Source: a virus. From it: a stretch of DNA of 64,000 nt. Below the pieces are notes generated by a model. The model did no database searches and had not been told where the DNA came from. It saw only the letters and a program-made list of their open reading frames with translations. Shown one piece after another: positions 1 through 10,683 of the stretch (positions are counted from its first letter, which is position 1; every line of letters starts with the position of its first letter). The translations under genes were made by a program, and so were the position numbers. The stretch is taken from IMG/VR virus record IMGVR_UViG_3300030419_004148, positions 1 through 64,000 of that record; one strand, given 5' to 3'.

Positions 1-360
1 GTCCCCCCGCCGATGTGCTGCGTAGGGAGAAAACCGCTGCGTCAGGAGATTGTGCTCTCTTTTGCGGGGTGAATGGTTTGCTGCAGCAAAGTGAGATTGC
101 CGTGCTGCGTCAGCTTGGAGTGCTGCGTTCGCGCTGTTCTGCTGGCATTACGCTGAGATGCCGTCTGCGCGCTGTTATGCTGGCATTGTGCTGTTGTGCT
201 GGCATTGTGCTGTTATGCCGCGACCTATTTTTTTTTGCTCTGCTAAGGATGCTGCGTCAGTCTACTGTAAAGCGCGGTGAGAAACTGTATGCTTCAGCAA
301 AATCGGGCAGCAATAGTCTGTGCTCCCCCGTGAGAAACTGTGCTGCCAAACTAGAATGAT
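1..360. repeat. GC-rich, low-complexity left-end region with TGCTG-based repeats (possible genome terminus)
   Basis: TGCTGGCATTGTGCTGTT occurs at 178-195 and 197-214, GCTGCGTCAG three times and TGCTG more than 10 times; GC is much higher than the rest of the window. Confidence 0.6.
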
Positions 361-404
361 AACAATGTGTGTGCGTTTGCTCTTATTCCAAAGGCATACG
401 TCAG

Positions 405-540
405 AGTGTATATTATAGCTCTATATAGTATAATAGCTCTATAGGGTATTACTATATAGCACTTCTTCTTTTTATTGCTCTATAGGGCTTAGATATAATA
501 TAAGCTTATAATATGCTGTAATGCCTATCGTATAGCATAA
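405..540. other. AT-rich non-coding tract with short repeats (candidate origin or packaging region)
   Basis: TATA-rich, GCTCTATAGGG twice, ATAGCTCTATA twice, no ORF; function inferred. Confidence 0.35.
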
Positions 541-552
541 GAAGCAAACGTA

Positions 553-609
553 GAGCACCCGCGATTTTTTATGCTGGCACGAGGCTTTATATATTCACGG
601 CGTGTTGTA
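553..609 (+). promoter_or_regulatory. Early archaeal promoter, copy 1
   Basis: TTTATATA box inside GAGCAC..ATGCTGGcACGAGGcTTTATATATTCA..TTGTA; near-identical copy at 2553-2607. Confidence 0.75.
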
Positions 610-653
610 GATTTACATTTGCTGGTTATTTATAACTAGCAAGGAGCAATGAA

Positions 654-1010
654 ATGGAGAACGAAGCAATAGACATAAATGCGCTGTCTGATAAAATGCT
701 AGATGCCTTAGAAGCAGCATTGAAATCAAAAACAGCAAAGCAGACGCCGTCTACTGTTCGCCGCAGAAGGCCTAGAAAAGCATACGAACAACTTACGCCG
801 CATCCAACAAACGTATTGGCTGCGATAAAGTTCGAACGTGAGCAGGGCAATAAAAATGCTGTGACGGACGGATATGAACGAGCAAGGAAAGAAATGATAG
901 AGCAAAGGATGGAAACAGAGCAAAACTACCGCCGCCTCTATAAGAATATCGCCGAAGGAAGAATCCGTGGCGGCAATATGCGATTAGCACGCAGCGAGGT
1001 GTTAGATTGA
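654..1010 (+). CDS. hypothetical early protein
   Basis: First ORF after the promoter, AAGGAG RBS. Confidence 0.7.
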   Translation: MENEAIDINALSDKMLDALEAALKSKTAKQTPSTVRRRRPRKAYEQLTPHPTNVLAAIKFEREQGNKNAVTDGYERARKEMIEQRMETEQNYRRLYKNIAEGRIRGGNMRLARSEVLD

Positions 1011-1306
1011 GCAGCAAAGAGTGGTTTGAAATCGGCAGTGTTGAACACGATGAAGCAACACGAATTGAAGTAGCAAAACAAAGATTAGATAGCATAATAT
1101 CTATGTTTGCTGATTCCTGTGACGATATTTGCTCTGATGACCCAGAGCAATATACTCCAAAGGTAGCAAATGTATCACAGCAGACATTTGAAAAATGCTG
1201 GCACGATGCAAGTGATGCTTGGTTGGAATTAAAGTTAGCAATAACTAGAAAGCAAAGAGAAGCGAGGGCTGTGTTAGACATTGAAAAAGCAGTATCAATG
1301 AAATGA
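1007..1306 (+). CDS. hypothetical protein
   Basis: TTGA start/stop overlap, GAGGTG RBS. Confidence 0.65.
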   Translation: MSSKEWFEIGSVEHDEATRIEVAKQRLDSIISMFADSCDDICSDDPEQYTPKVANVSQQTFEKCWHDASDAWLELKLAITRKQREARAVLDIEKAVSMK

Positions 1307-1530
1307 AGCAAAACCGAGTTAAAGACGGCAGAAAGGCACTTGAAGGGGCAGCAGAATCGATGGAACAGCTGGAAGAAATATTTGGCAGCGATTTCTCAGA
1401 GCACTTCGGTGATTTTGACGGCGGTTTGTTTAACCACTTAAAGCATCAGATTTATACTGCTCGCTTTCACTTAAACTGCTATAATACAGATAAAGAGCTG
1501 GAATCGGAGTGTGAATGCTATGAACCTTAA
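1303..1530 (+). CDS. hypothetical protein
   Basis: ATGA overlap with the upstream ORF. Confidence 0.6.
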   Translation: MKQNRVKDGRKALEGAAESMEQLEEIFGSDFSEHFGDFDGGLFNHLKHQIYTARFHLNCYNTDKELESECECYEP

Positions 1531-1879
1531 AGAACTAGCAGAATTAAAAAAGGCGCTGCAATATTTTAGAAGGCTGGAAGGGACTAAACCTTTGCTGAAT
1601 CTGTATCCAACAGACGGCAAATTACATTCAGCACTAAAAGAATGCACTGCTTTGTGGTTTGAAAAAGAAGCAGACGATGTGACCAATACAGCAATTGATG
1701 ATTTCTTAAAAGCAATGTTTACAGTTCTAGCAGAAAAGAAGCTGCAACGTAAATTTATGCTTGAAATTAAAAAACTCGGCGGAGTAGGTTATAAAAGCGG
1801 TGGAGTCCACGGCAAAAATAAATACTCTGCTGATAAGAGTCGTGTAGACGGCAAACTAATACAAAGGAAGCGAAGATAA
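1511..1879 (+). CDS. hypothetical basic protein
   Basis: Part of the coupled early operon. Confidence 0.6.
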   Translation: MNAMNLKELAELKKALQYFRRLEGTKPLLNLYPTDGKLHSALKECTALWFEKEADDVTNTAIDDFLKAMFTVLAEKKLQRKFMLEIKKLGGVGYKSGGVHGKNKYSADKSRVDGKLIQRKRR

Positions 1880-1989
1880 ATGTGCAAGCAATGTAAAAAG
1901 AAAAGAGCAAAAAATAACGAACCTAGCTATGAAGAATTAAAAAGAGCATTTCCAGATAATGCTATGATTAGATTTAAAGAGCGAAGAAA

Positions 1990-2154
1990 ATGATTAGTCG
2001 AGCAGAAATTTGGCTGAAAGAGCTAGGTGTGACGCTGACAGAGCACGCTTGTGACGAGTGCAGCACAAAGTATAAGAGCATTAATCCTGAGCCAAAGCAA
2101 AAGCTCTGCCTTGATTGCTACTTAGATTTACCAGACAGCGAGGTATTTTGTTAG
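1990..2154 (+). CDS. small CxxC-CxxC zinc-finger protein (not in ORF track)
   Basis: Hand translation MISRAEIWLKELGVTLTEHACDECSTKYKSINPEPKQKLCLDCYLDLPDSEVFC; ATGA overlap with the 37-aa ORF 1880-1993. Confidence 0.6.
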   Translation: MISRAEIWLKELGVTLTEHACDECSTKYKSINPEPKQKLCLDCYLDLPDSEVFC

Positions 2155-2464
2155 ACGGCATAGAAACACAACCGCTGAGTATAGAAGAAATACAGCTAAT
2201 TGATGTAGCTGTTGCCGTGAATAAAGCTTTAGAGCCAAACTATATGCCGTCTGTGGTAAAAGTTGGCAGCGGTCAAATGGAGAATAGCTGAGATAATGAT
2301 AGCTGAAAGAGAAGAAGTGAGCAAAGAATGTATTAAAAAGCTGGGTTTTGCGTTTGTTCCCAGCACTGCTTTCGACTCCTGTTCCAAACTTGCTTCTTCT
2401 CCAGCAAATAGAGTCGGGTTGCCGCCGGTCGCCCCGCTCTTTATGAAACCGGCACTGAGAAAAT

Positions 2465-2542
2465 CCTGCCGTAGTGTAGCCCGGCCCATCATTCCGCCGT
2501 CTTGTGGCGGAGACGCTGGTTCAAATCCAGCCGGCAGGGCCA
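2465..2542 (+). tRNA. atypical tRNA: archaeal Glu/Asp-type body, nominal anticodon CTT (Lys), encoded CCA
   Basis: Acceptor CCTGCCG/CGGCAGG, D-arm GTGTAGCCCGGCCCATCAT, anticodon stem CCGCC/GGCGG with loop GTCTTGT, T-arm GCTGG-TTCAAAT-CCAGC, G73, CCA. Confidence 0.85.
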
Positions 2543-2552
2543 TTTCTTATTC

Positions 2553-2607
2553 GAGCACTCTCGGGAGAATGCTGGAACGAGGTTTTATATATTCAGAGCA
2601 CATTGTA
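2553..2607 (+). promoter_or_regulatory. Early archaeal promoter, copy 2
   Basis: GAGCAC..ATGCTGGaACGAGGtTTTATATATTCA..TTGTA upstream of the 563-aa gene. Confidence 0.75.
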
Positions 2608-2642
2608 AAAATAAAAAAAAGCGAGGAGAAAAAAAATAGCAA

Positions 2643-4334
2643 ATGAGTGAAAATGAAGCAGTGAAATGTGATAAATGCCGTGAAGTTATAACTAACGATG
2701 AAGTGCTGTCTACTGACGAATATGAGTCATTATGTCAGGACTGCTACGATAGTTTTATCGAATGTGCCTGTTGCAGCGAAGTATATGAAAATGCTTATAC
2801 TTCTACCTGTCACGGCGACCCTATATGCCGTGATTGTTATAATGGCGGCGATGTAGGTCACTGCACATCCTGTGATGCTCAGATTATTCTTAGTCACGGC
2901 GATTATTATTATGATGACCATAGTGGTGAATACTGCTGTTCAGATACGGCAGATTGCACATACTTAGATTGGAGCTGCGAAAGTTGTGGCTGCGAGATGA
3001 CTTTTGAAGAAGCAAACACAGACCACGCAGAGCAATACTTATGTTATGACTGCTACCACAATCCATCTTCTAGCATACAGAGAATGGCAGACAGCTGGAT
3101 AGATAAAGCAGATGTTCACACTAAAAGCTGGTATAAAGATTTAGATGACGGCGCAAAATTCTTTTTAGCTGAGTTTTATAGAAGCCGTGAAGATGAATTT
3201 AAAACCAGCAATCAAATGATAAAGAAAGGTGCTTTAGGTGCTGGAAGTGACAAAGGCTGGTGGGATGGAGAAATTGAAGTGCAAAGTCCTGCGTTTGCTG
3301 ATATGGCAAAAGTCATAGCAGATATATGTTATAGTGACTTATTCTTTGTCAAGCATAAGAAATACGGCCTTTATCATCCATTTAGACATCTATTTCATCA
3401 ATGCTTGAGTTATAGAGATAGGCAAGGAAGCGACACAGTGTATTATAATAGAGTCGGCAGAGATGATGACCCTCAAATAGCATTCGAAGAAGTTTGCAGA
3501 GATTATCACCGCTGGGAATTATACGCCGTTAGACATAATAAGTTAGCAAATATGTTAGCTGAAAACAAAACTGAAGATGGAGCTAATTTAAGAAAAACAA
3601 CCAGCAATATTATGAATCGCTCTTATGCAGATAGATTTGCGCTGTTATCACAAAGAAATAACACATTAGAACAATCATACCAGCAATACTTAACAAATGC
3701 TGTAAATCAAAAATATAAAATCAAAATAGGATTTGACAGCGAAGTAATGATGGACTTAGCAGATTTTAATCAAGTCGTTGGTTCCTGTCAGGATTCAGCA
3801 AATAGAATGTCTTATGCTTTTGGATTTGCAGATATGCTAGTTAATCCTCATCTGCTTGCTTTAATATATGAAGATAATAAAATTATTGGTCGCTCTGTTA
3901 TAAGATTTTGGAAGCATAGCTGGGATGACAGCAATGAAGTAGTTAAGATTGCTCCTTCACGCCTCTATTTAAGCCGTATAACTAATGCTAAGGCTGATGT
4001 TTATGTTGCTCTATTTAAACAAGTTAATGAATGGGCAAAGACAGTTTACGGCATTGATAATTATGAAATAATCGCTTACTCAGATTCACGGCACGACAGT
4101 CCAGTATATAGCTTTATTAGAGGTCATATAACAGGAAGGGATGCCTCACAGCGATTAAATACACAAGTATGGAACACATTTTGGCACAGCAAACCATCCG
4201 ATGATTGTGCTGACTATACTTATTACAAGGATGAAATGCAAAGAGCAGTATACTTTGGACAGCGAGATGGTGATGACTATTCCTGTAAAGAAACACTGCC
4301 GAATTATGGTTATAAAACATTGGAGTTAGATTAA
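2643..4334 (+). CDS. protein with N-terminal tandem CxxC zinc ribbons and a C-terminal possible GNAT/PcfJ-like domain
   Basis: About 8 CxxC-type pairs in the first 140 aa; C-terminal SCQ...LALIY..IIGRSVIRFW...RLY...LFKQVNEWAK..YG pattern; the fold call is inference. Confidence 0.6.
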   Translation: MSENEAVKCDKCREVITNDEVLSTDEYESLCQDCYDSFIECACCSEVYENAYTSTCHGDPICRDCYNGGDVGHCTSCDAQIILSHGDYYYDDHSGEYCCSDTADCTYLDWSCESCGCEMTFEEANTDHAEQYLCYDCYHNPSSSIQRMADSWIDKADVHTKSWYKDLDDGAKFFLAEFYRSREDEFKTSNQMIKKGALGAGSDKGWWDGEIEVQSPAFADMAKVIADICYSDLFFVKHKKYGLYHPFRHLFHQCLSYRDRQGSDTVYYNRVGRDDDPQIAFEEVCRDYHRWELYAVRHNKLANMLAENKTEDGANLRKTTSNIMNRSYADRFALLSQRNNTLEQSYQQYLTNAVNQKYKIKIGFDSEVMMDLADFNQVVGSCQDSANRMSYAFGFADMLVNPHLLALIYEDNKIIGRSVIRFWKHSWDDSNEVVKIAPSRLYLSRITNAKADVYVALFKQVNEWAKTVYGIDNYEIIAYSDSRHDSPVYSFIRGHITGRDASQRLNTQVWNTFWHSKPSDDCADYTYYKDEMQRAVYFGQRDGDDYSCKETLPNYGYKTLELD

Positions 4335-5687
4335 ATGAGCGAAGAAGAACCAAAAGAAGCCATAGTTAAATCTATGAGCGAAGAAGAAATGGCAAGCAAA
4401 AGTCGTTTAACCGCCGTTTACCCCGCCCCAGCAGAACAAATGAGTGACCAGCAATTATTGTATAGGATGTTTTCAATATTCAGTCCTAGCAGCGATGAAC
4501 ACGCAATGATAGCATTTGTCACAAATTATCTCCGTGATAATGAAATAGAGCACCAAATAGATAGTGCTGGAAATATATATTTTAACAATCACGTTGAAGG
4601 AGACTGCCGGATTTTACTGAATGCACATATGGATACCGTAGCAAGTGCTGTGGCAAATGTCATTCAAGTAGAAGAGGATGGGAAAGCTGTGTTTAAATCA
4701 TCAAACAATCAAGTTATAGGTGGAGACGACAAGTGTGGTGTATTTGCTGTATTAAAATGCATCACAGATAGAACAATAACAACGCCGTTAATGGGTATGT
4801 TGAATGTGTCCGAAGAGATTGGCTTAGTCGGTAGTGACTTTGCTATGGAACATCATTCTGACCTGTTCAAAGACGTTGTGTTCTGTATAACGGTAGACCG
4901 CCGTGGCAATACTGAAATTATCACAAAAAACAGCGATGTAGACTTATGCAGTGATGATATGGAAAAAATGCTTGGTGAGTGGGGCAAAGATTATGGCCTA
5001 CGAACTGCTACAGGTTCCATATCTGACGTAAGTAATGTTGTAAAAGCATTAGAAATTAATGGTATTAATTTATTTGCTGGATATTACAATGCTCACTCTG
5101 GTAGTGAAAAAGTCGTTTATGAAGAACTGCTTGAATCAGTTAGATTTATTAAGTTTTTAGTGCCGGAATTACATAAGTATTTCAGCGATAATCCTGACAA
5201 AGTGAAATATGAACCATCAAAAAGCTGGTCCAACTATCCTCGATACGGCGGATATTACGGATATACCGAATGGGGAAGTGGATACGGCCTTAAATCATAT
5301 GGCGGCGTTAAAGTATATGAAACTGCTAACGATGTAGACCATCACGAAGCATTAGATATGTTAGATATGCTGATTGAGGAAATAGAGGACATACAGGATA
5401 ATTACTTTATGTTCGATGCATTACGGCAAGCTGAGACACGATTAAGCACATCTGGAAAATCGCTAGTTATTGAAGAGGGCTGGAATTTATTCTATACTGA
5501 AATGAAAGAATTAGATGCTCACTTACACGTTTATGACGGCGGTGTATTGAAAGGTGGAAAAGCAGAAGATGCAGTTATCTCAATAAAAGTTTTACAAGCA
5601 TTTGAAGATGCAGTTAGCGCTCGCAAAACAGCCGAGCAGTTTGATGTGACTTGGGATGACTTAGATAATGGAGGAGCGACTGACTAA
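4335..5687 (+). CDS. M28/M20-family zinc exopeptidase
   Basis: Motifs AHMDTV, GGDDKCG, EEIG, DRRG, YNAH. Confidence 0.85.
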   Translation: MSEEEPKEAIVKSMSEEEMASKSRLTAVYPAPAEQMSDQQLLYRMFSIFSPSSDEHAMIAFVTNYLRDNEIEHQIDSAGNIYFNNHVEGDCRILLNAHMDTVASAVANVIQVEEDGKAVFKSSNNQVIGGDDKCGVFAVLKCITDRTITTPLMGMLNVSEEIGLVGSDFAMEHHSDLFKDVVFCITVDRRGNTEIITKNSDVDLCSDDMEKMLGEWGKDYGLRTATGSISDVSNVVKALEINGINLFAGYYNAHSGSEKVVYEELLESVRFIKFLVPELHKYFSDNPDKVKYEPSKSWSNYPRYGGYYGYTEWGSGYGLKSYGGVKVYETANDVDHHEALDMLDMLIEEIEDIQDNYFMFDALRQAETRLSTSGKSLVIEEGWNLFYTEMKELDAHLHVYDGGVLKGGKAEDAVISIKVLQAFEDAVSARKTAEQFDVTWDDLDNGGATD

Positions 5688-6013
5688 TGCCTGCTAAAGA
5701 TAGAGACTTAATGATGTGTCCTGATTGTGATAAAGCAGGAACATTACGTCACGTTGAAGAAGATAACAACCACTTTGAATGTTATAGATGCTCTGATTGT
5801 TCTGGAGAATTCTTCCCAGATGAATTAAAGCGTATACAATATAAGACAGTGAAGTTTACGAATGATAACGGCAAAGAAATATATATACCGCTAACACCTG
5901 ACAGAATTGCTAGGTTAAAAGAAGAGGGTGTATATCAAAGAGCAGCCGAAACCAGAAGAAAGCAAACTCTGAATCGCAGAGATAAAAACTTATTACGGAG
6001 GTTAAGAAAATAG
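5687..6013 (+). CDS. zinc-ribbon protein
   Basis: CPDC...CSDC, basic C-terminus, GGAGG RBS. Confidence 0.7.
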   Translation: MPAKDRDLMMCPDCDKAGTLRHVEEDNNHFECYRCSDCSGEFFPDELKRIQYKTVKFTNDNGKEIYIPLTPDRIARLKEEGVYQRAAETRRKQTLNRRDKNLLRRLRK

Positions 6014-6048
6014 GCGGCGTCCACTCACCCCGCTATATTAACCCACAA

Positions 6049-6214
6049 CCAGCAGATAGGGAAGGAGTGCCGTTTCTTACTCCTTTTTGTTTGTTTCACC
6101 AATTTTGGACAGCAAAGAAGCGTCTGGTCGCTAGCCACGCCGTTTTTATGCTGTTGTCGGTAGTAGTTCGGTTCTTCTACCGGCACAATTTGGTGCTCCT
6201 TCCCCTGCAAATGG
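6049..6214 (+). ncRNA. structured RNA closed by a canonical bulge-helix-bulge (predicted 153-nt excised/circular RNA, 6058-6210)
   Basis: CCA-GCAG-[ATA]-GGGAAGGAGTGCC pairs with GGTGCTCCTTCCC-CTGC-[AAA]-TGG; two internal hairpins. Confidence 0.6.
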
Positions 6215-6221
6215 AGAGAAA

Positions 6222-6380
6222 ATGTATAAAAGAATGACAGTAGATTTAGCAGTAAGCGAAGGCTTTGAGAAAGCGCTCGATAAGATTTTCGAGAAGCTTG
6301 GACATATGAAAATATATAATGTTATACAGCGCCCTGATGGGAGCTATTACTTGGAGAAAATATGCAAACAGCAACAATAA
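6222..6380 (+). CDS. small hypothetical protein (52 aa, not in ORF track)
   Basis: MYKRMTVDLAVSEGFEKALDKIFEKLG...; GGAG RBS at 6213-6216. Confidence 0.55.
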   Translation: MYKRMTVDLAVSEGFEKALDKIFEKLGHMKIYNVIQRPDGSYYLEKICKQQQ

Positions 6381-7141
6381 ATGTAAAAGAATTAGAGAAA
6401 TATACTGAGCTAGACATTCAGGAGATTCTCCGTGATTGGGGTAATCGCTACATTGTTTCTCGAGCAGCACTGAGATTAGGAGCTATTGACCCTGACGATG
6501 ACAGACTTGGTAATAATAGGCCGCAAACGGTAGGTTGGGCTGCTTTATGGCATCGCAACGGCCACGATTATATCCATCGCAGCAAAGCTCAACCATTTAC
6601 GCTAAATGATAGAGGAGTTTTACACGAATATAAACCTGCAGCGGAGAGGCTATTTAAACTGCTGACTACTGAAGGTTTTAGAAAGCAAATGAAGGGAGAG
6701 ATAGTGCTATATAAATCAGGAGCTGGACAACGTGAAATATCCGGCAGTAATTATCCTATACGTTTGACTGACGGAAGATACTGCTTTTACACTGGTAATT
6801 CTCAATTAGTTGATAGATTAGCTATGTCTGATGAGAATCGCTTTACTTCTGATGAAGCTGATTTATTATTCAGATTGTGGATGAATGATAACGTAGTGCT
6901 ACCTACTTGCTTTACAAACAGTCCACGAAACTCGGTTATAAAAAACAGGGCAGAAAAGGAATTTAAGAAGCGATGTTGGAAGATTTTTATGCTACTTAAT
7001 TATTTTGATGAAGATTCTTTTGAAGAATTATTTAATAGATACAGCGACCCCGAAGTCCACCGTGCTGGATTTTTAGTTTGGCAGCGTGGGGAAATAATAA
7101 CTCGCTGGGAAGGAGGTGTTATGCCACATCCCAAGTATTAA
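6362..7141 (+). CDS. hypothetical protein
   Basis: 259-aa ORF, GGAG RBS, no recognised motif. Confidence 0.75.
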   Translation: MQTATINVKELEKYTELDIQEILRDWGNRYIVSRAALRLGAIDPDDDRLGNNRPQTVGWAALWHRNGHDYIHRSKAQPFTLNDRGVLHEYKPAAERLFKLLTTEGFRKQMKGEIVLYKSGAGQREISGSNYPIRLTDGRYCFYTGNSQLVDRLAMSDENRFTSDEADLLFRLWMNDNVVLPTCFTNSPRNSVIKNRAEKEFKKRCWKIFMLLNYFDEDSFEELFNRYSDPEVHRAGFLVWQRGEIITRWEGGVMPHPKY

Positions 7142-7149
7142 ATACTTGG
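7131..7149 (+). promoter_or_regulatory. TATA box embedded in a perfect inverted repeat
   Basis: CCAAGTATT-A-AATACTTGG. Confidence 0.6.
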
Positions 7150-7158
7150 ACAACGATA

Positions 7159-7293
7159 GTGAAAGGTAGGTAGTAGTTTTGCTTGATTGCGACAATCCTC
7201 TGTATCAATCAGGCGGCGTATGAATGATAACCAACTACTTGATTTCTATACTGCTACCTACCCACAAACCTGCTCCGGTCACCCCGCAGCAGA
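7159..7293 (+). ncRNA. structured intergenic RNA
   Basis: GGTAGGTAGTAGT/ACTGCTACCTACC terminal stem, inner GCTTGATTG/CAATCAGGC stem, 3' hairpin CTGCT..AGCAG; about 25 nt downstream of a TATA box. Confidence 0.5.
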
Positions 7294-7312
7294 AACTTAA
7301 AAGGAGACATTT

Positions 7313-7582
7313 ATGCGAGAACACGACAAAAAGATATTCGAACTGCTACTAGCAGAAATATTTAAAAATAAAATAATGCTCGAAGAGATTGAAAAAGATA
7401 TCTTCGGAGAGATGCAATACCTCGCAGATATGCCGGAAGGTATAAGAGGTGAAACAGTGGGAGATTTTGAAGAAAAAGTTGGCCGTAATAGATATAAATA
7501 CGGCCCTATCGTCTTTGATGAGACTATGTTAAGTCCTCCCGCTATAAGAGAAAACGTATTGGAGAGAAAAAAGAAAAAATGA
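7313..7582 (+). CDS. hypothetical protein
   Basis: AGGAG RBS. Confidence 0.7.
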   Translation: MREHDKKIFELLLAEIFKNKIMLEEIEKDIFGEMQYLADMPEGIRGETVGDFEEKVGRNRYKYGPIVFDETMLSPPAIRENVLERKKKK

Positions 7583-7926
7583 GCAAAGAAGAAGAGAAAC
7601 TTGCTAACGATATAGACCCAGAGGAAGTAAAAATTGTAAGCAGTAAGTTTGACGAGAAAATGTATCGTTCAGCAAAAGAAGAATTAGAAGAGAGTGGTAT
7701 TAAATTAGATATAAAGATAGACCACCGTGAAGGAGAAAATACCGGAGAAGTTGTTGTAGGCTATGCTTTGGATGAAGGAGAAGATTACAGTTTCCTTGAC
7801 CCCGAGCCATTGACTGGATATACTTTGCTGGAAGAGATTAAATTTTGTTTGTATGGTTGTCAAGCAGAATTAAAAAGATTGGAGAAACTAATAGAAACAT
7901 ACGAAGATGTCAGCAGATTACAGTGA
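7579..7926 (+). CDS. acidic hypothetical protein
   Basis: ATGA overlap with the upstream ORF. Confidence 0.7.
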   Translation: MSKEEEKLANDIDPEEVKIVSSKFDEKMYRSAKEELEESGIKLDIKIDHREGENTGEVVVGYALDEGEDYSFLDPEPLTGYTLLEEIKFCLYGCQAELKRLEKLIETYEDVSRLQ

Positions 7927-10683
7927 TGAACCTGCTTGTGTTAGACGTGGCACAGGCTGGATTGATTTTTCTACAATAGAAAAGAAACGAATAAAGCGTC
8001 GTAAAGTAAAAATAAGGAGAAAGAGAAATGAAGAGAAACTACATAGTAGAACTTGATATAAGAGATATGCAAATGCTAGAAATGTATAGAATGGGATTAG
8101 AACAACAACATCCTGTTAGTGAAGTTGATACTGCTTTACACGATATTTTATGGCAGATATCAGAGCAATACCACGAGAGAGAAATGGAGAGGAATTATGA
8201 ATCGACTAACTAAAGAAGAGTATGCTGAAAAGTATGAAGCTGATGGTCATACCGGACTACCTAAGTGTAAATGCTGTGGTAGAATAGATACTGATTTTGA
8301 TATGTATAATGAGGTTATAGATGAGTGAAACGTTAGAAGATAAATACCAATATATGTGTGAATTGGTTGAGGACCAAGCACGAGAAATATTTGAATATAA
8401 AAAGATAATTGCTGGTGCTCAAAAGGTAGAAGAAGAATTGGAATACTTTGTTCAAAATATTGCTGCTCTTATTTATTATCAATGTTCTTTAAGAGACCAA
8501 GACCAATGGTTAAAGCGAGTAATGGATAAAGGTATTTGGGAACCTGAAGCCATTGAGGAAGAAGAATGAGATGTGTAAGGTGTGGTAAAGATTATATAGG
8601 TATGAAACAGCATCATAAATTTAATTGCCCTCACTGTGGGGGTGACTAATGGTTTGTGTAGATTGCTCTTGTGAAAGGTGTGAACGAGCAAAAAAGGAAG
8701 AAATGGACCAATTCAAAGAGCAGATGAAAATTGAATACCCTGATTGTGTTAAATGGCAGAATGATGATTACAGTCCGTGCTTTTGTGTGAGGTGTTTAGG
8801 ATGAAAAATTGCCCGAAATGTAAAGAACAAGCAAAGTTCGATGAAGGTAATTTAAAAATGGATATATTAGCACATTACTATTGTAGTGAATGTATGATAT
8901 GGACTGAAAATAGACACACTAGCATTTGGACTGACGGTTGTGATGAATTTTATAGTAATGGAAAGGAAAGGAGTATTTGGAGATAATGTATAGCAACGGC
9001 GATTACGCAAAAACAGGACCGCATTTCAGAAGAGGTGGTTATAAACTTTGGAATTGGTGCGTTAAATGTGAGTGTGTGTGGGAAAAGAAAATTAGCTGGT
9101 GTAGAAAATGTAATTCTCGATTAAGGTTTGGAGGGCGTTATATTAGTAGAAGGGAGAAAGAATTAAAAAATGCTCCTAAAGAACAGGTGGTGTATCAAGG
9201 ATGAAAATATTACCTTATAAATACAGAGTAGCGATAGCTTTTTTACATTTTATAATGAGATTATTAGATAAAATATACGAAGGTGAGGACATCTGGGGTC
9301 CAGAAGAGCCGTGGTGGGATACACAATGAGAATTAAAAGGGCGGTAGAAGAGTTATCTTTTTTTACCCTGCCGTTATGGGAAGTAAAGAAGGTGAAGAAA
9401 AAATGAAAATAGTCACTTGTAATACGTGTAGATGTAAGTTAGTATTTGATTATGTGAGATATAGAGACACAGCAGGTAATCCATATTGTCACATATGTTA
9501 TACGAGGTTGCTAGTATGACATTAACTGAATGGTTGATGTTTGTAGCAATAATAGATGGTCCAATATTAGGATTATTATATATGCTGTGGAGGAAGATAA
9601 GATGAATTTATTAACAGACCACGAATCTGGTTTAATTGCTGGGTTTATGTTTGGGTTAGGTATAGGAATAATTATAGGATATTATATTTTATGAAAGTAG
9701 TAGTAGATAACATAGAGATATTAGATATAACGCTCGGTTTATACGGTAATGTTTTTGTTCGTGTTAGAGATATAGATGGGTATGAATACGCAGGTGAACT
9801 CACGGAAGTGATGGAAGATGAATGAATTATGCTTAATATGTAAACATATTGTCACTCCGTATGGAGGGATGATTAAAATCAAAGGAAAATCAATGCATAT
9901 GGAATGTGCTATGATGGAATTTGAAAGTGAAGTAAGAAAAAGAGAGGAATAAAATGAGAAAAAATCATATATTAGTGAAAGAGACAGGAAGCACAGTTTG
10001 TGGTATAACACAGCTATCTGTGCAGGAAAAATACCATATGAGTAAACCATATTGGAATAAATATATTACTTGCTCTAAGTGTAAGAAGGAGTTAGACAAT
10101 GGCTCGTGTATGGCGTGAAGGTGATAAGTGTCCGATAGGGCCGAGATTTACAACAGGTGGTTATGATAAATGGAATTGGTGCTCAATATGCACTGCAATT
10201 TGGGACAAAAAAACACTGCGTTGTAAAAACTGCAATCAAATGACACGTAGTAGAACAAGGTGGAAGTAATGAAGTATAGTGCTAGTTGTGATTGTGGTTA
10301 TGAGACCCCTTTAGTAGAAAATGAAAAAGATATTGATTGGGAATTATTAGAGATACATCAGGAGTTTTGTAAATGATGGAAGATATATGTGATTTTGTTG
10401 ACGGCAGTGGTATTACTGAATGCCCTGACTGTGGTGAGATTGTAGAACCTGAATTTGATGAAAAAACACAAATGGATAAATGTCCTTACTGTTATAATGG
10501 CAAATATATGTATGGTGATGCGTGAAAGTTTGCTATATTTGTAAGAAAAATAAATGTGAAGAACTTTTAGACATTTATTGTTTAGATTGTCGTTGGGATA
10601 TACATCACAGTAGACGGTGGGATAATAGAGACCTTTCGAAAGAAGAGTGGAAACTATTATATAGAAGGTTGAATAATAGCTAA
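7907..10683 (+). other. array of about 20 coupled micro-ORFs (26-82 aa), many CxxC zinc fingers, two single-TM peptides
   Basis: Chained ATGA/TAATG overlaps, e.g. 8566-8649 MRCVRCG..CPHCGGD, 8649-8804, 8801-8986, 8986-9204, 9403-9519, 9516-9605 (TM), 9602-9694 (TM), 10099-10269. Confidence 0.7.

Follow-up and report, generated by a model that had tools for sequence, protein, structure and literature searches.

We analyzed a 64,000-nucleotide stretch of viral DNA, called the window here, which comprises positions 1 to 64,000 of the IMG/VR record IMGVR_UViG_3300030419_004148. Near its beginning lie, all on the + strand, a tRNA gene (2465..2542), an open reading frame (ORF) for a 563-amino-acid protein with zinc ribbons (P0001, 2643..4334), and an ORF for a 450-amino-acid putative metallopeptidase (P0002, 4335..5687). 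An earlier note on this DNA described a tRNA with a poor decoding loop upstream of two abutting genes, and proposed that these elements form a module that adds amino acids to proteins or surface polymers and removes them again. The two genes do abut, as the ORF for P0002 starts at the base right after the TAA stop codon of the ORF for P0001.

P0001 has three parts. Residues 1 to 145 (2643..3077) contain four acidic zinc-ribbon repeats of the Cys4 type; the tandem ribbons had already been recognized in the earlier note, and we found four CxxC...CxxC units whose cysteines are conserved. Specifically, C9, C12, C31, C34, C41, C44, C62, C65, C134, and C137 are invariant across 32 homologs, and C74, C99, C112, and C115 are nearly invariant. 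The ribbon region has an isoelectric point (pI) of 4.05, with 32 Asp or Glu residues versus 5 Lys or Arg residues, and it has weak DUF7685 or LIM-like matches. (The pI is 4.9 for the whole protein and 5.5 for the C-terminal domain.) Residues 150 to 354 (3090..3704) form a conserved alpha/beta domain, according to the alignment and the structural model, with the motif HKKYGLYHP; a structure search of the ESM Atlas identified no named relative for this domain. The C-terminal domain, residues 355 to 563 (3705..4334), is discussed below. Except for weak zinc-finger matches, P0001 had no match in Pfam, PHROGs, NCBIfam, or PDB profiles, and a tblastn search against a collection of cultured phages found nothing. 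Homologs of P0001 form 34 clusters in a collection of 5.8 billion proteins; the contigs that encode them are marine and reach 81 kb in length. When 1.84 billion representatives were searched in full with a profile, the family had just 32 members.

For the C-terminal domain, the earlier note had guessed from sequence patterns that it resembles the GCN5-related N-acetyltransferases (GNATs). All of the listed motifs (SC, GR, IRFW, RLY, and WAK) are present, and structure prediction indicates that the guess was right at the level of the fold. The domain has a GNAT fold in the AlphaFold 2 model of the full-length protein, with a predicted local distance difference test score (pLDDT) of 86.5, and again when residues 355 to 563 were predicted alone with 44 sequences (pLDDT of 89 and predicted template modeling score of 0.88). 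The Foldseek matches of both models are GNAT acetyltransferases, and the topology (beta1-alpha1-alpha2-beta2-beta3-beta4-alpha3-beta5-alpha4-beta6, with a possible beta7) resembles that of solved GNATs. Going by these models, the C-terminal domain of P0001 has the GNAT fold. The best 50 listed matches of each fold search with this domain were all GNATs that use acyl coenzyme A (acyl-CoA). FemX, L/F-transferase, ATE1, and MprF were not among the best 50 listed matches of any fold search with P0001, and the Pfam models FemAB, Leu_Phe_trans, and ATE had no match in P0001 or in the 32 members of its family.

In the widest alignment of the family, C382, Q383, R417, R440, Y442, Y527, and Y528 are invariant, and P518 and D530 are nearly so. 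The model places C382-Q383 in the loop between alpha1 and alpha2, R417 on beta3, R440-x-Y442 on beta4, and Y527-Y528-x-D530 in the loop between beta6 and beta7, with SRHD (residues 482 to 485) directly after beta5. Because these residues are invariant across very distant relatives, the domain is probably an enzyme and not a scaffold.

P0002 is predicted to be a two-metal exopeptidase or deacylase of the MH clan. Its catalytic domain (approximately residues 36 to 290) contains the motifs HxD, GxDD, EE, DR, and H, which correspond to the five metal ligands and the catalytic Glu of this clan. The residues of the site (H98-x-D100, D131-D132, E160-E161, D188, and H254) are invariant columns in an alignment of 17 sequences that includes cultured phages. 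As judged from these motifs, the metal site is intact and P0002 is an MH-clan metallopeptidase. The earlier note had called it an M28 or M20 exopeptidase, and the metal site agrees with an exopeptidase of this clan, but Pfam's M28 models did not match at E ≤ 0.1 and the profile matches are nearer to M20 and M42. In particular, Pfam's M42 model (PF05343) matched with 27.3 bits (cutoff 23.2), in an alignment confined to residues 131 to 181, and the PDB sequence matches were to M20 and M42 only (PepT-like, 1e-5). PHROGs gave a match to phrog_4191, "peptidase" (7e-41). The NCBIfam matches were weak and included glutamyl aminopeptidase, [LysW]-lysine hydrolase, and M20 deacylases, with the named models far below their cutoffs (the glutamyl aminopeptidase model, TIGR03107, scored 20.9 against a cutoff of 469.7). 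The spacing of the ligands presumably resembles that of M28.

P0002 thus shares its five metal ligands and catalytic Glu with the M42 peptidases TET and PepA, with the M20 enzymes PepT, ArgE, DapE, and LysK, and with M28 aminopeptidases. Unlike these enzymes, it has its own linker and C-terminal extension, and there is no space between the ligands for the lid of M20 or the PDZ-like domain of M42. The linker is a Gly/Tyr-rich low-complexity segment (about residues 296 to 325, window positions 5220 to 5310; YPRYGGYYGYTEWGSGYGLKSYGG), and the extension after it is about 125 amino acids long. Homologs of P0002 are found in 151 of 50,697 cultured phage records (0.3%), from many hosts.

The genes for the transferase-like protein and the peptidase are adjacent, in unchanged order, in 10 of the 10 related loci that have enough flanking sequence. 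A more distant version of the pair is found in Cellulophaga phage Calle_1, where the gene for gp50 comes after that for the peptidase (gp49). The motifs of gp50 (SCM...NP...GRALVW...DRIY...YPYMD) occur in the same order as those of P0001 (SCQ...NPH...GRSVIR...SRLY...YYKDE). When we compared the two families with hhalign, the probability was 57% over the whole length and 83% when limited to the domain (E of 9e-6), with the motifs in register. The family of gp50-like proteins is probably homologous to that of P0001. It is found on at least 300 viral contigs as well as in cultured Cellulophaga phages and in huge phages, which have as many as 14 copies, and all of its members are annotated as hypothetical. 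Our counts of gene context in this family rest on 80 loci out of the at least 300 contigs. A homolog of the peptidase lies within 8 kb in 43 of these 80 loci; it is directly adjacent and on the same strand in 38, in both gene orders and in at least 16 clusters (at 60% identity).

Adjacency that is retained despite a variable gene order is a classic sign of functional coupling. Because adjacency is kept in both orders while the peptidase is rare in phages, we consider it very likely that the two genes are a functional pair. The pair is conserved across distant viruses, as would be expected if, as the earlier note proposed, the two genes are a module.

In Calle_1, in the related phages phi38:1 and phi40:1, in Vibrio phage VP93 (ORF6-ORF7), and in KP34-like phages, the peptidase adjoins a protein with the pattern SC[QM]...GR...[DSV]R.Y...[YP]Y.D, and the partner protein also bears Cys- or Tyr-rich repeats. 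These pairs differ from that of the window in that the hosts are bacteria and the ribbons are C-terminal instead of N-terminal; in Calle_1, the gene order is opposite as well. All of these proteins are annotated as hypothetical. In VP93 and a KP34-like Klebsiella phage, the partner is a protein of 650 to 710 amino acids, encoded directly 5' of the peptidase, with the motifs GPSSCM...GRA...VR.YG...LMPYLD and a matching zinc ribbon. At the place of the CoA loop, this family has R-x-Y-G-x-A. The VP93 ORF6 family shares its type of ribbon with P0001 (hhalign E of 2e-4), with no other support for a relationship to the window family, so that homology is weak; the similarity to the Calle_1 family is weak too (19% probability, E of 1e-3). 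VP93-like and KP34-like phages of Vibrio and Klebsiella may also carry the pair, but given these statistics, we view this as a lead. Similarly, in Brevibacillus phage SecTim467, a 466-amino-acid protein that has TSCQ as well as zinc ribbons is encoded 1.7 kb away from the peptidase. Judging by its length only, this protein probably corresponds to a BFVD match with E of 4e-3; hhalign gave no support for kinship, and it too is only a lead. In Lactococcus phage P087 and Bacillus phage Tsamsa, the peptidase is present without a detectable SC[QM] neighbor.

We made several other observations about these relatives. A huge phage (LR756504.1, 636 kb) has a striking lineage-specific expansion: between 154 and 533 kb, it encodes 14 gp50-like proteins with the SCM motif and 6 peptidase paralogs, none of which are adjacent (the nearest are 5 to 7 kb apart). 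P0122, a gp50-like protein of 746 amino acids, has a C-terminal fusion to a nucleotidyltransferase of the DNA polymerase beta type (PF01909, 25.5 bits with a cutoff of 21, residues 554 to 609). P0141 (713 amino acids, on a 43-kb contig) is 94% identical to VP93 ORF6 and is named in NCBI as a hypothetical protein of Streptococcus agalactiae; probably, this is a phage contig that was mislabeled in the assembly. In Calle_1, the region from 39.6 to 50.4 kb contains the peptidase/gp50 pair alongside tRNA-Glu, an annotated tmRNA, a phosphoribosyltransferase, and the RNA ligase RtcB. The ESM Atlas also suggested PcfJ as a relative of P0001 (scores of 0.80 to 0.82). We rejected this lead at the sequence level: PF14284 (PcfJ) matched nothing at E ≤ 1 in the genomes of the window virus, Calle_1, VP93, the Klebsiella phage, or the huge phage. 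DruA and an "amidoligase" were further look-alikes.

Two neighboring genes of the window are also conserved. P0183 (5687..6013, + strand), whose gene overlaps the stop codon of the peptidase by 1 base, is a 108-amino-acid protein with an N-terminal zinc ribbon (CPDC...CYRCSDC, TFIIB-type, E of 4.5e-4) and, at the C terminus, a strongly basic tail. A homolog is encoded 3' of the peptidase in 10 of the 10 related loci with flanking sequence, and P0183 may bind nucleic acids as the third member of the gene block. On the other side, an ORF of 122 amino acids (1511-1879, + strand) matched no known family; in 10 of 11 related loci, a homolog (35 to 66% identity) lies directly 5' of either the pair or the tRNA.

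The source record is a 75.5-kb virus that is rated 100% complete, and the window covers its first 64 kb. The window encodes a tape-measure protein, DNA polymerase, ribonucleotide reductase, DNA methyltransferase, and a glycosyltransferase; from this gene content, the virus is head-tailed. At least three studies of marine or marine-plankton metagenomes have yielded nearly identical DNA, and when the DNA of this region was compared to that of cultured phages, there were zero matches. The host probably belongs to the Poseidoniales, because the D-arm of the tRNA is nearly identical to theirs: it is one base off from that of tRNA-Glu from Poseidoniales or Poseidoniia (marine group II), and the thaumarchaeal versions diverge. 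When we scanned 185,579 species genomes with the pattern of the D-arm, the matches were almost exclusively archaeal. Magroviruses and other viruses of Poseidoniales are known through metagenomes, and some of them contain host-like tRNAs (PMC5434244). Between the tRNA and the ORF for P0001, a TATA-like box read from the sequence (TTTATATA, 2584-2591, + strand) lies about 50 nucleotides 5' of the start of the ORF and is followed by a Shine-Dalgarno-like element (GAGGAG); the box is a putative archaeal promoter of the gene block. Scans for sigma-70 promoters and for terminators gave results at the level of chance, and the sigma-70 scan is irrelevant to an archaeal virus. The G+C content is about 40% in positions 1 to 8000 of the window and 30 to 38% in the remainder, and both the coding strand and the GC skew flip at about 30 kb.

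ARAGORN identified the tRNA as tRNA-Lys(CTT), and it scores 47.4 bits against Rfam's RF00005 (gathering score, 29). It is the sole tRNA in the complete record. Alignment with viral tRNAs and those of Poseidoniales indicates that its body is of the archaeal Glu type: it has 56 identities out of 75 to host tRNA-Glu(UUC), as compared to 43 to 45 out of 75 to the tRNA-Lys(UUU) of Poseidoniales. It also has 56 of 75 identities to tRNA-Gln, but the D-loop of the host's tRNA-Gln is 2 bases shorter. The window tRNA differs from host tRNA-Glu in the anticodon, in the 1-72 pair (C1-G72), and at position 73 (G73); a tRNA from a related contig, L012, retains all three. The anticodon loop is GUCUUGU. In this loop, which the earlier note described as a poor one for decoding, G32 and U38 are unusual; U33 is normal, and G37, which replaces the A37 of host tRNA-Lys, is native to the tRNA-Glu(CUC) of Poseidoniia. 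Both G37 and the CCA that is encoded in the gene are present in tRNA-Glu of Poseidoniia and are therefore inherited traits instead of signs of decay.

Related tRNAs are found in four related contigs. Because the acceptor, anticodon, and T stems vary by compensatory changes, the cloverleaf appears to be under selection. The tRNA of L012 (11647-11724) has intact stems and a CUC anticodon, G1-C72, and A73, as in host tRNA-Glu, yet it has C33, and U33 is almost universal among tRNAs that decode. The tRNAs of the window, L006/L011, and L008 have CUU, C1-G72, and either G73 or U73. Overall, the four archaeal-virus tRNAs have kept their stems and have abnormal anticodon loops (G32 or A32 that can pair with U38, C33 in L012, and the change from CUC to CUU). 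As compared to an elongator tRNA-Lys, the cloverleaf, U33, CUU, and G73 of the window tRNA agree, while G32, G37, U38, and the body disagree. Because host tRNA-Lys carries G73, the combination of CUU and G73 could mean a genuine switch to lysine identity. Alternatively, the anomalies of the loop (pairing of G32 or A32 with U38, and C33 in one relative) could mean that decoding is relaxed.

The tRNA is optional to the pair: among close relatives, it is near the pair in only 4 of 11 loci, at varying positions, and one relative that is 100% complete has the pair and no tRNA. However, Glu-type tRNAs recur near the pair, which partly bears out the association with atypical tRNAs that the earlier note suggested, although the pair can occur without a tRNA and the tRNAs need not be aberrant. 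In the archaeal-virus family, five contigs contain exactly one tRNA each, always Glu-bodied and 0.03 to 4 kb from the pair (upstream in three contigs and downstream in two). Among the 38 adjacent pairs of bacterial viruses, 29 have no tRNA within 8 kb and nine do. In seven of these nine, from four clusters, it is a canonical bacterial tRNA-Glu(UUC), 0.7 to 5 kb upstream. Besides this tRNA-Glu, no tRNA is present in two partial genomes or in a complete one of 60.9 kb that has terminal repeats. Calle_1 has an array of about 20 tRNAs on the opposite strand, plus two identical copies of tRNA-Glu that are apart from the array and nearer to the pair. Because the tRNAs are of archaeal type in archaeal viruses and of bacterial type in bacterial viruses, they were acquired separately. 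There may have been just two independent captures, as the bacterial lineages may share ancestral synteny. The balance of these comparisons tips toward a non-random link between the Glu-type tRNA and the pair. The link could reflect the supply of a donor, a tRNA target, a shared role in counter-defense, or the clustering of accessory genes.

The last of these corresponds to an explanation with no mechanistic link between the tRNA and the pair, in which the tRNA aids the decoding of rare AAG codons or, as a copy with a mutated loop, escapes the host's anticodon nucleases, and accessory genes cluster; the GNAT-like domain could even be a noncatalytic scaffold. In the virus, 23% of Lys codons are AAG and could be read by a CUU tRNA, and G73 is as in host tRNA-Lys. 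The varying position of the tRNA relative to the gene block, and its frequent absence, also fit. Furthermore, according to published reports, phage tRNAs can escape tRNA-targeting defenses via mutations in the anticodon loop, and a viral tRNA-Lys counters PARIS (PMC10264068, PMC12409363, PMC11555353). However, the same type of tRNA, often as the sole tRNA, by the same pair in both archaeal and bacterial viruses is unlikely to be due to chance, and the residues of P0001 that are invariant in very distant relatives argue for a catalytic domain. Overall, we consider this explanation improbable.

Our preferred reading, which we hold tentatively and at a little less than even confidence, is that P0001 and P0002 are a module of an acyl-CoA-type GNAT transferase and an exopeptidase that acts on proteins, with the tRNA as an optional accessory. 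The two enzymes, together with P0183, would form a module in the non-structural arm of the virus. The four very acidic ribbons would probably dock the catalytic domain onto a basic protein target. In the model, the conserved residues of the GNAT domain appear to line beta4, beta5, and the two loops that make up the acceptor site of N-terminal acetyltransferases. With an acyl-CoA-type donor, the transferase would most likely acylate an amino group on a protein of the host or the virus, and the two-metal enzyme would act on the same substrate, either by cutting back residues so that the modified end is exposed or lost or by stripping the acyl group off. The Glu-type tRNA would probably be a translation or anti-defense tRNA in the same accessory region and would not be needed by the enzymes. 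We favor an acyl-CoA donor because almost all GNATs, and every listed structural neighbor of P0001, use acyl-CoA. Of all this, our analysis shows the fold, the intact metal site, the conserved adjacency, and the dispensability of the tRNA, and we infer the donor, the target, the order of action, and the timing of expression.

Several points weigh against this reading. A shared fold does not reveal the donor, and the Q/RxxGxG/A loop that would bind the pyrophosphate of CoA is absent from P0001, where the stretch between beta4 and alpha3 (residues 439 to 450) is SRLYLSRITNAK. The consensus of the 32 homologs has no Gly in this stretch either, and Pfam's acetyltransferase models had zero matches to P0001 or to any of the 32 members, even at E ≤ 1. 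In addition, the link to the Calle_1 family is not certain at an hhalign probability of 83%, and a shared gene order is poor evidence for coupling when the viruses are related. Finally, an irrelevant tRNA would not readily account for the recurrence of a Glu-type tRNA beside the pair in viruses of two domains of hosts.

The absence of the CoA motif, and a linkage to tRNA-Glu that is otherwise unexplained, make another explanation a serious one, although we still judge it unlikely. Here, in a more specific form of the earlier note's proposal, P0001 would be an aminoacyl-tRNA-dependent transferase that, like FemX, L/F-transferase, or ATE1, puts Glu on an amino group of the target, and the MH-clan enzyme would remove it. 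The viral Glu-type tRNA would boost or privatize the donor, and in the lineage of the window virus, the odd anticodon loop would keep the tRNA out of translation. P0001 resembles FemX and other FemABX enzymes, L/F-transferase, and ATE1 in having a GNAT-like fold without the glycine loop for CoA, and there is a tRNA gene beside its locus. ATE1 also has an N-terminal Cys-rich region that binds metal, to which the ribbons of P0001 can be likened. P0001 differs from these enzymes in that none of them was among the listed structural matches or matched it in sequence, and in being acidic. The acidity of the ribbons, of the GNAT domain, and of the protein overall would be atypical for a protein that binds tRNA.

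The tRNAs themselves can be read both ways. A single Glu-bodied tRNA near the pair in the five archaeal-virus contigs, tRNA-Glu(UUC) upstream of most of the tRNA-bearing bacterial-virus pairs, and its presence as the sole tRNA of the 60.9-kb genome all favor transfer of Glu. So do the host-domain types of the tRNAs, which imply independent capture, and the conserved stems with abnormal anticodon loops in the archaeal viruses. On the other hand, a viral tRNA is missing from most pairs (though a host tRNA could serve), and the tRNA-Glu genes of the bacterial viruses resemble ordinary decoders. G73, which is found in two of the three CUU tRNAs and in host tRNA-Lys, fits a switch to decoding lysine better than a non-decoding role. 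Shared ancestral synteny among the bacterial lineages would also reduce the number of independent events, perhaps to two. Similarly, the best Pfam match of the peptidase is to the M42 glutamyl aminopeptidases, and the weak NCBIfam matches include glutamyl aminopeptidase and [LysW]-lysine hydrolase, but save for one short stretch of M42, the Glu-specific matches are far below the families' cutoffs.

We also considered whether the GNAT enzyme might act on tRNA or aminoacyl-tRNA, by acetylation as in TacT and AtaT or by modification of a base, and stop or reprogram the host's translation. The viral Glu-type tRNA would then serve as a replacement that resists this action, with the peptidase dealing with a by-product. 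However, AtaT and TacT matched P0001 no better than dozens of other GNATs did, P0001 is acidic, and a tightly coupled metallopeptidase is left without a role. The fusion to a nucleotidyltransferase is found in just 2 of 39 gp50-like members. We consider this explanation very improbable.

Returning to the acyl-CoA reading, the closest known proteins by fold are N-terminal and other protein acetyltransferases (archaeal Ard1/Naa10, RimI, RimJ, RimL, and NatD). P0001 lies outside their sequence family, lacks Q/RxxGxG/A, and has an invariant Cys-Gln that is not a feature of those proteins. It also has the 145-amino-acid zinc-ribbon array, the 200-amino-acid middle domain, and the pairing with a metallopeptidase. 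A functional parallel may be Rac (gp28) of phiKMV-like phages, whose GNAT activity leads to proteolytic cleavage of the alpha subunit of the host's RNA polymerase at takeover; the protease that cleaves the alpha subunit was not identified (PMC7552054). A review floated the idea that phage peptidases work with such GNATs (PMC7824862). Unlike P0001, Rac is a small canonical GNAT with a pocket for acetyl-CoA; it is encoded elsewhere in the genome with no adjacent peptidase.

Although the GNAT fold and the peptidase clan are well known, the family of P0001, its set of conserved residues, its pairing with the peptidase, and the recurrence of the tRNA appear to be undescribed. Specifically, in the searchable literature, we did not find a description of the P0001 family or of its invariant Cys-Gln, Arg, Arg-x-Tyr, and Tyr-Tyr set, nor of the zinc-ribbon tether, the conserved pairing, or the recurrent Glu-type tRNA.

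The occurrence of a transferase and peptidase module in the non-structural regions of many viruses would point to a common and unstudied modification of proteins during infection, and cultured, nonpathogenic systems such as the Cellulophaga phages make the pair directly testable. There may even be a widespread viral system that adds Glu or another amino acid from aminoacyl-tRNA by a new family with the GNAT fold, with a dedicated two-metal exopeptidase that removes or processes it, although this seems doubtful to us. Host-type tRNA-Glu would then have been recruited independently, and the copy in the archaeal viruses would have drifted from decoding to being a private donor. If Glu-tRNA is indeed the donor, then this would be the first viral system for tRNA-dependent tagging of proteins, and it would offer a concrete, non-translational answer to the old question of why some viruses contain just one tRNA gene.

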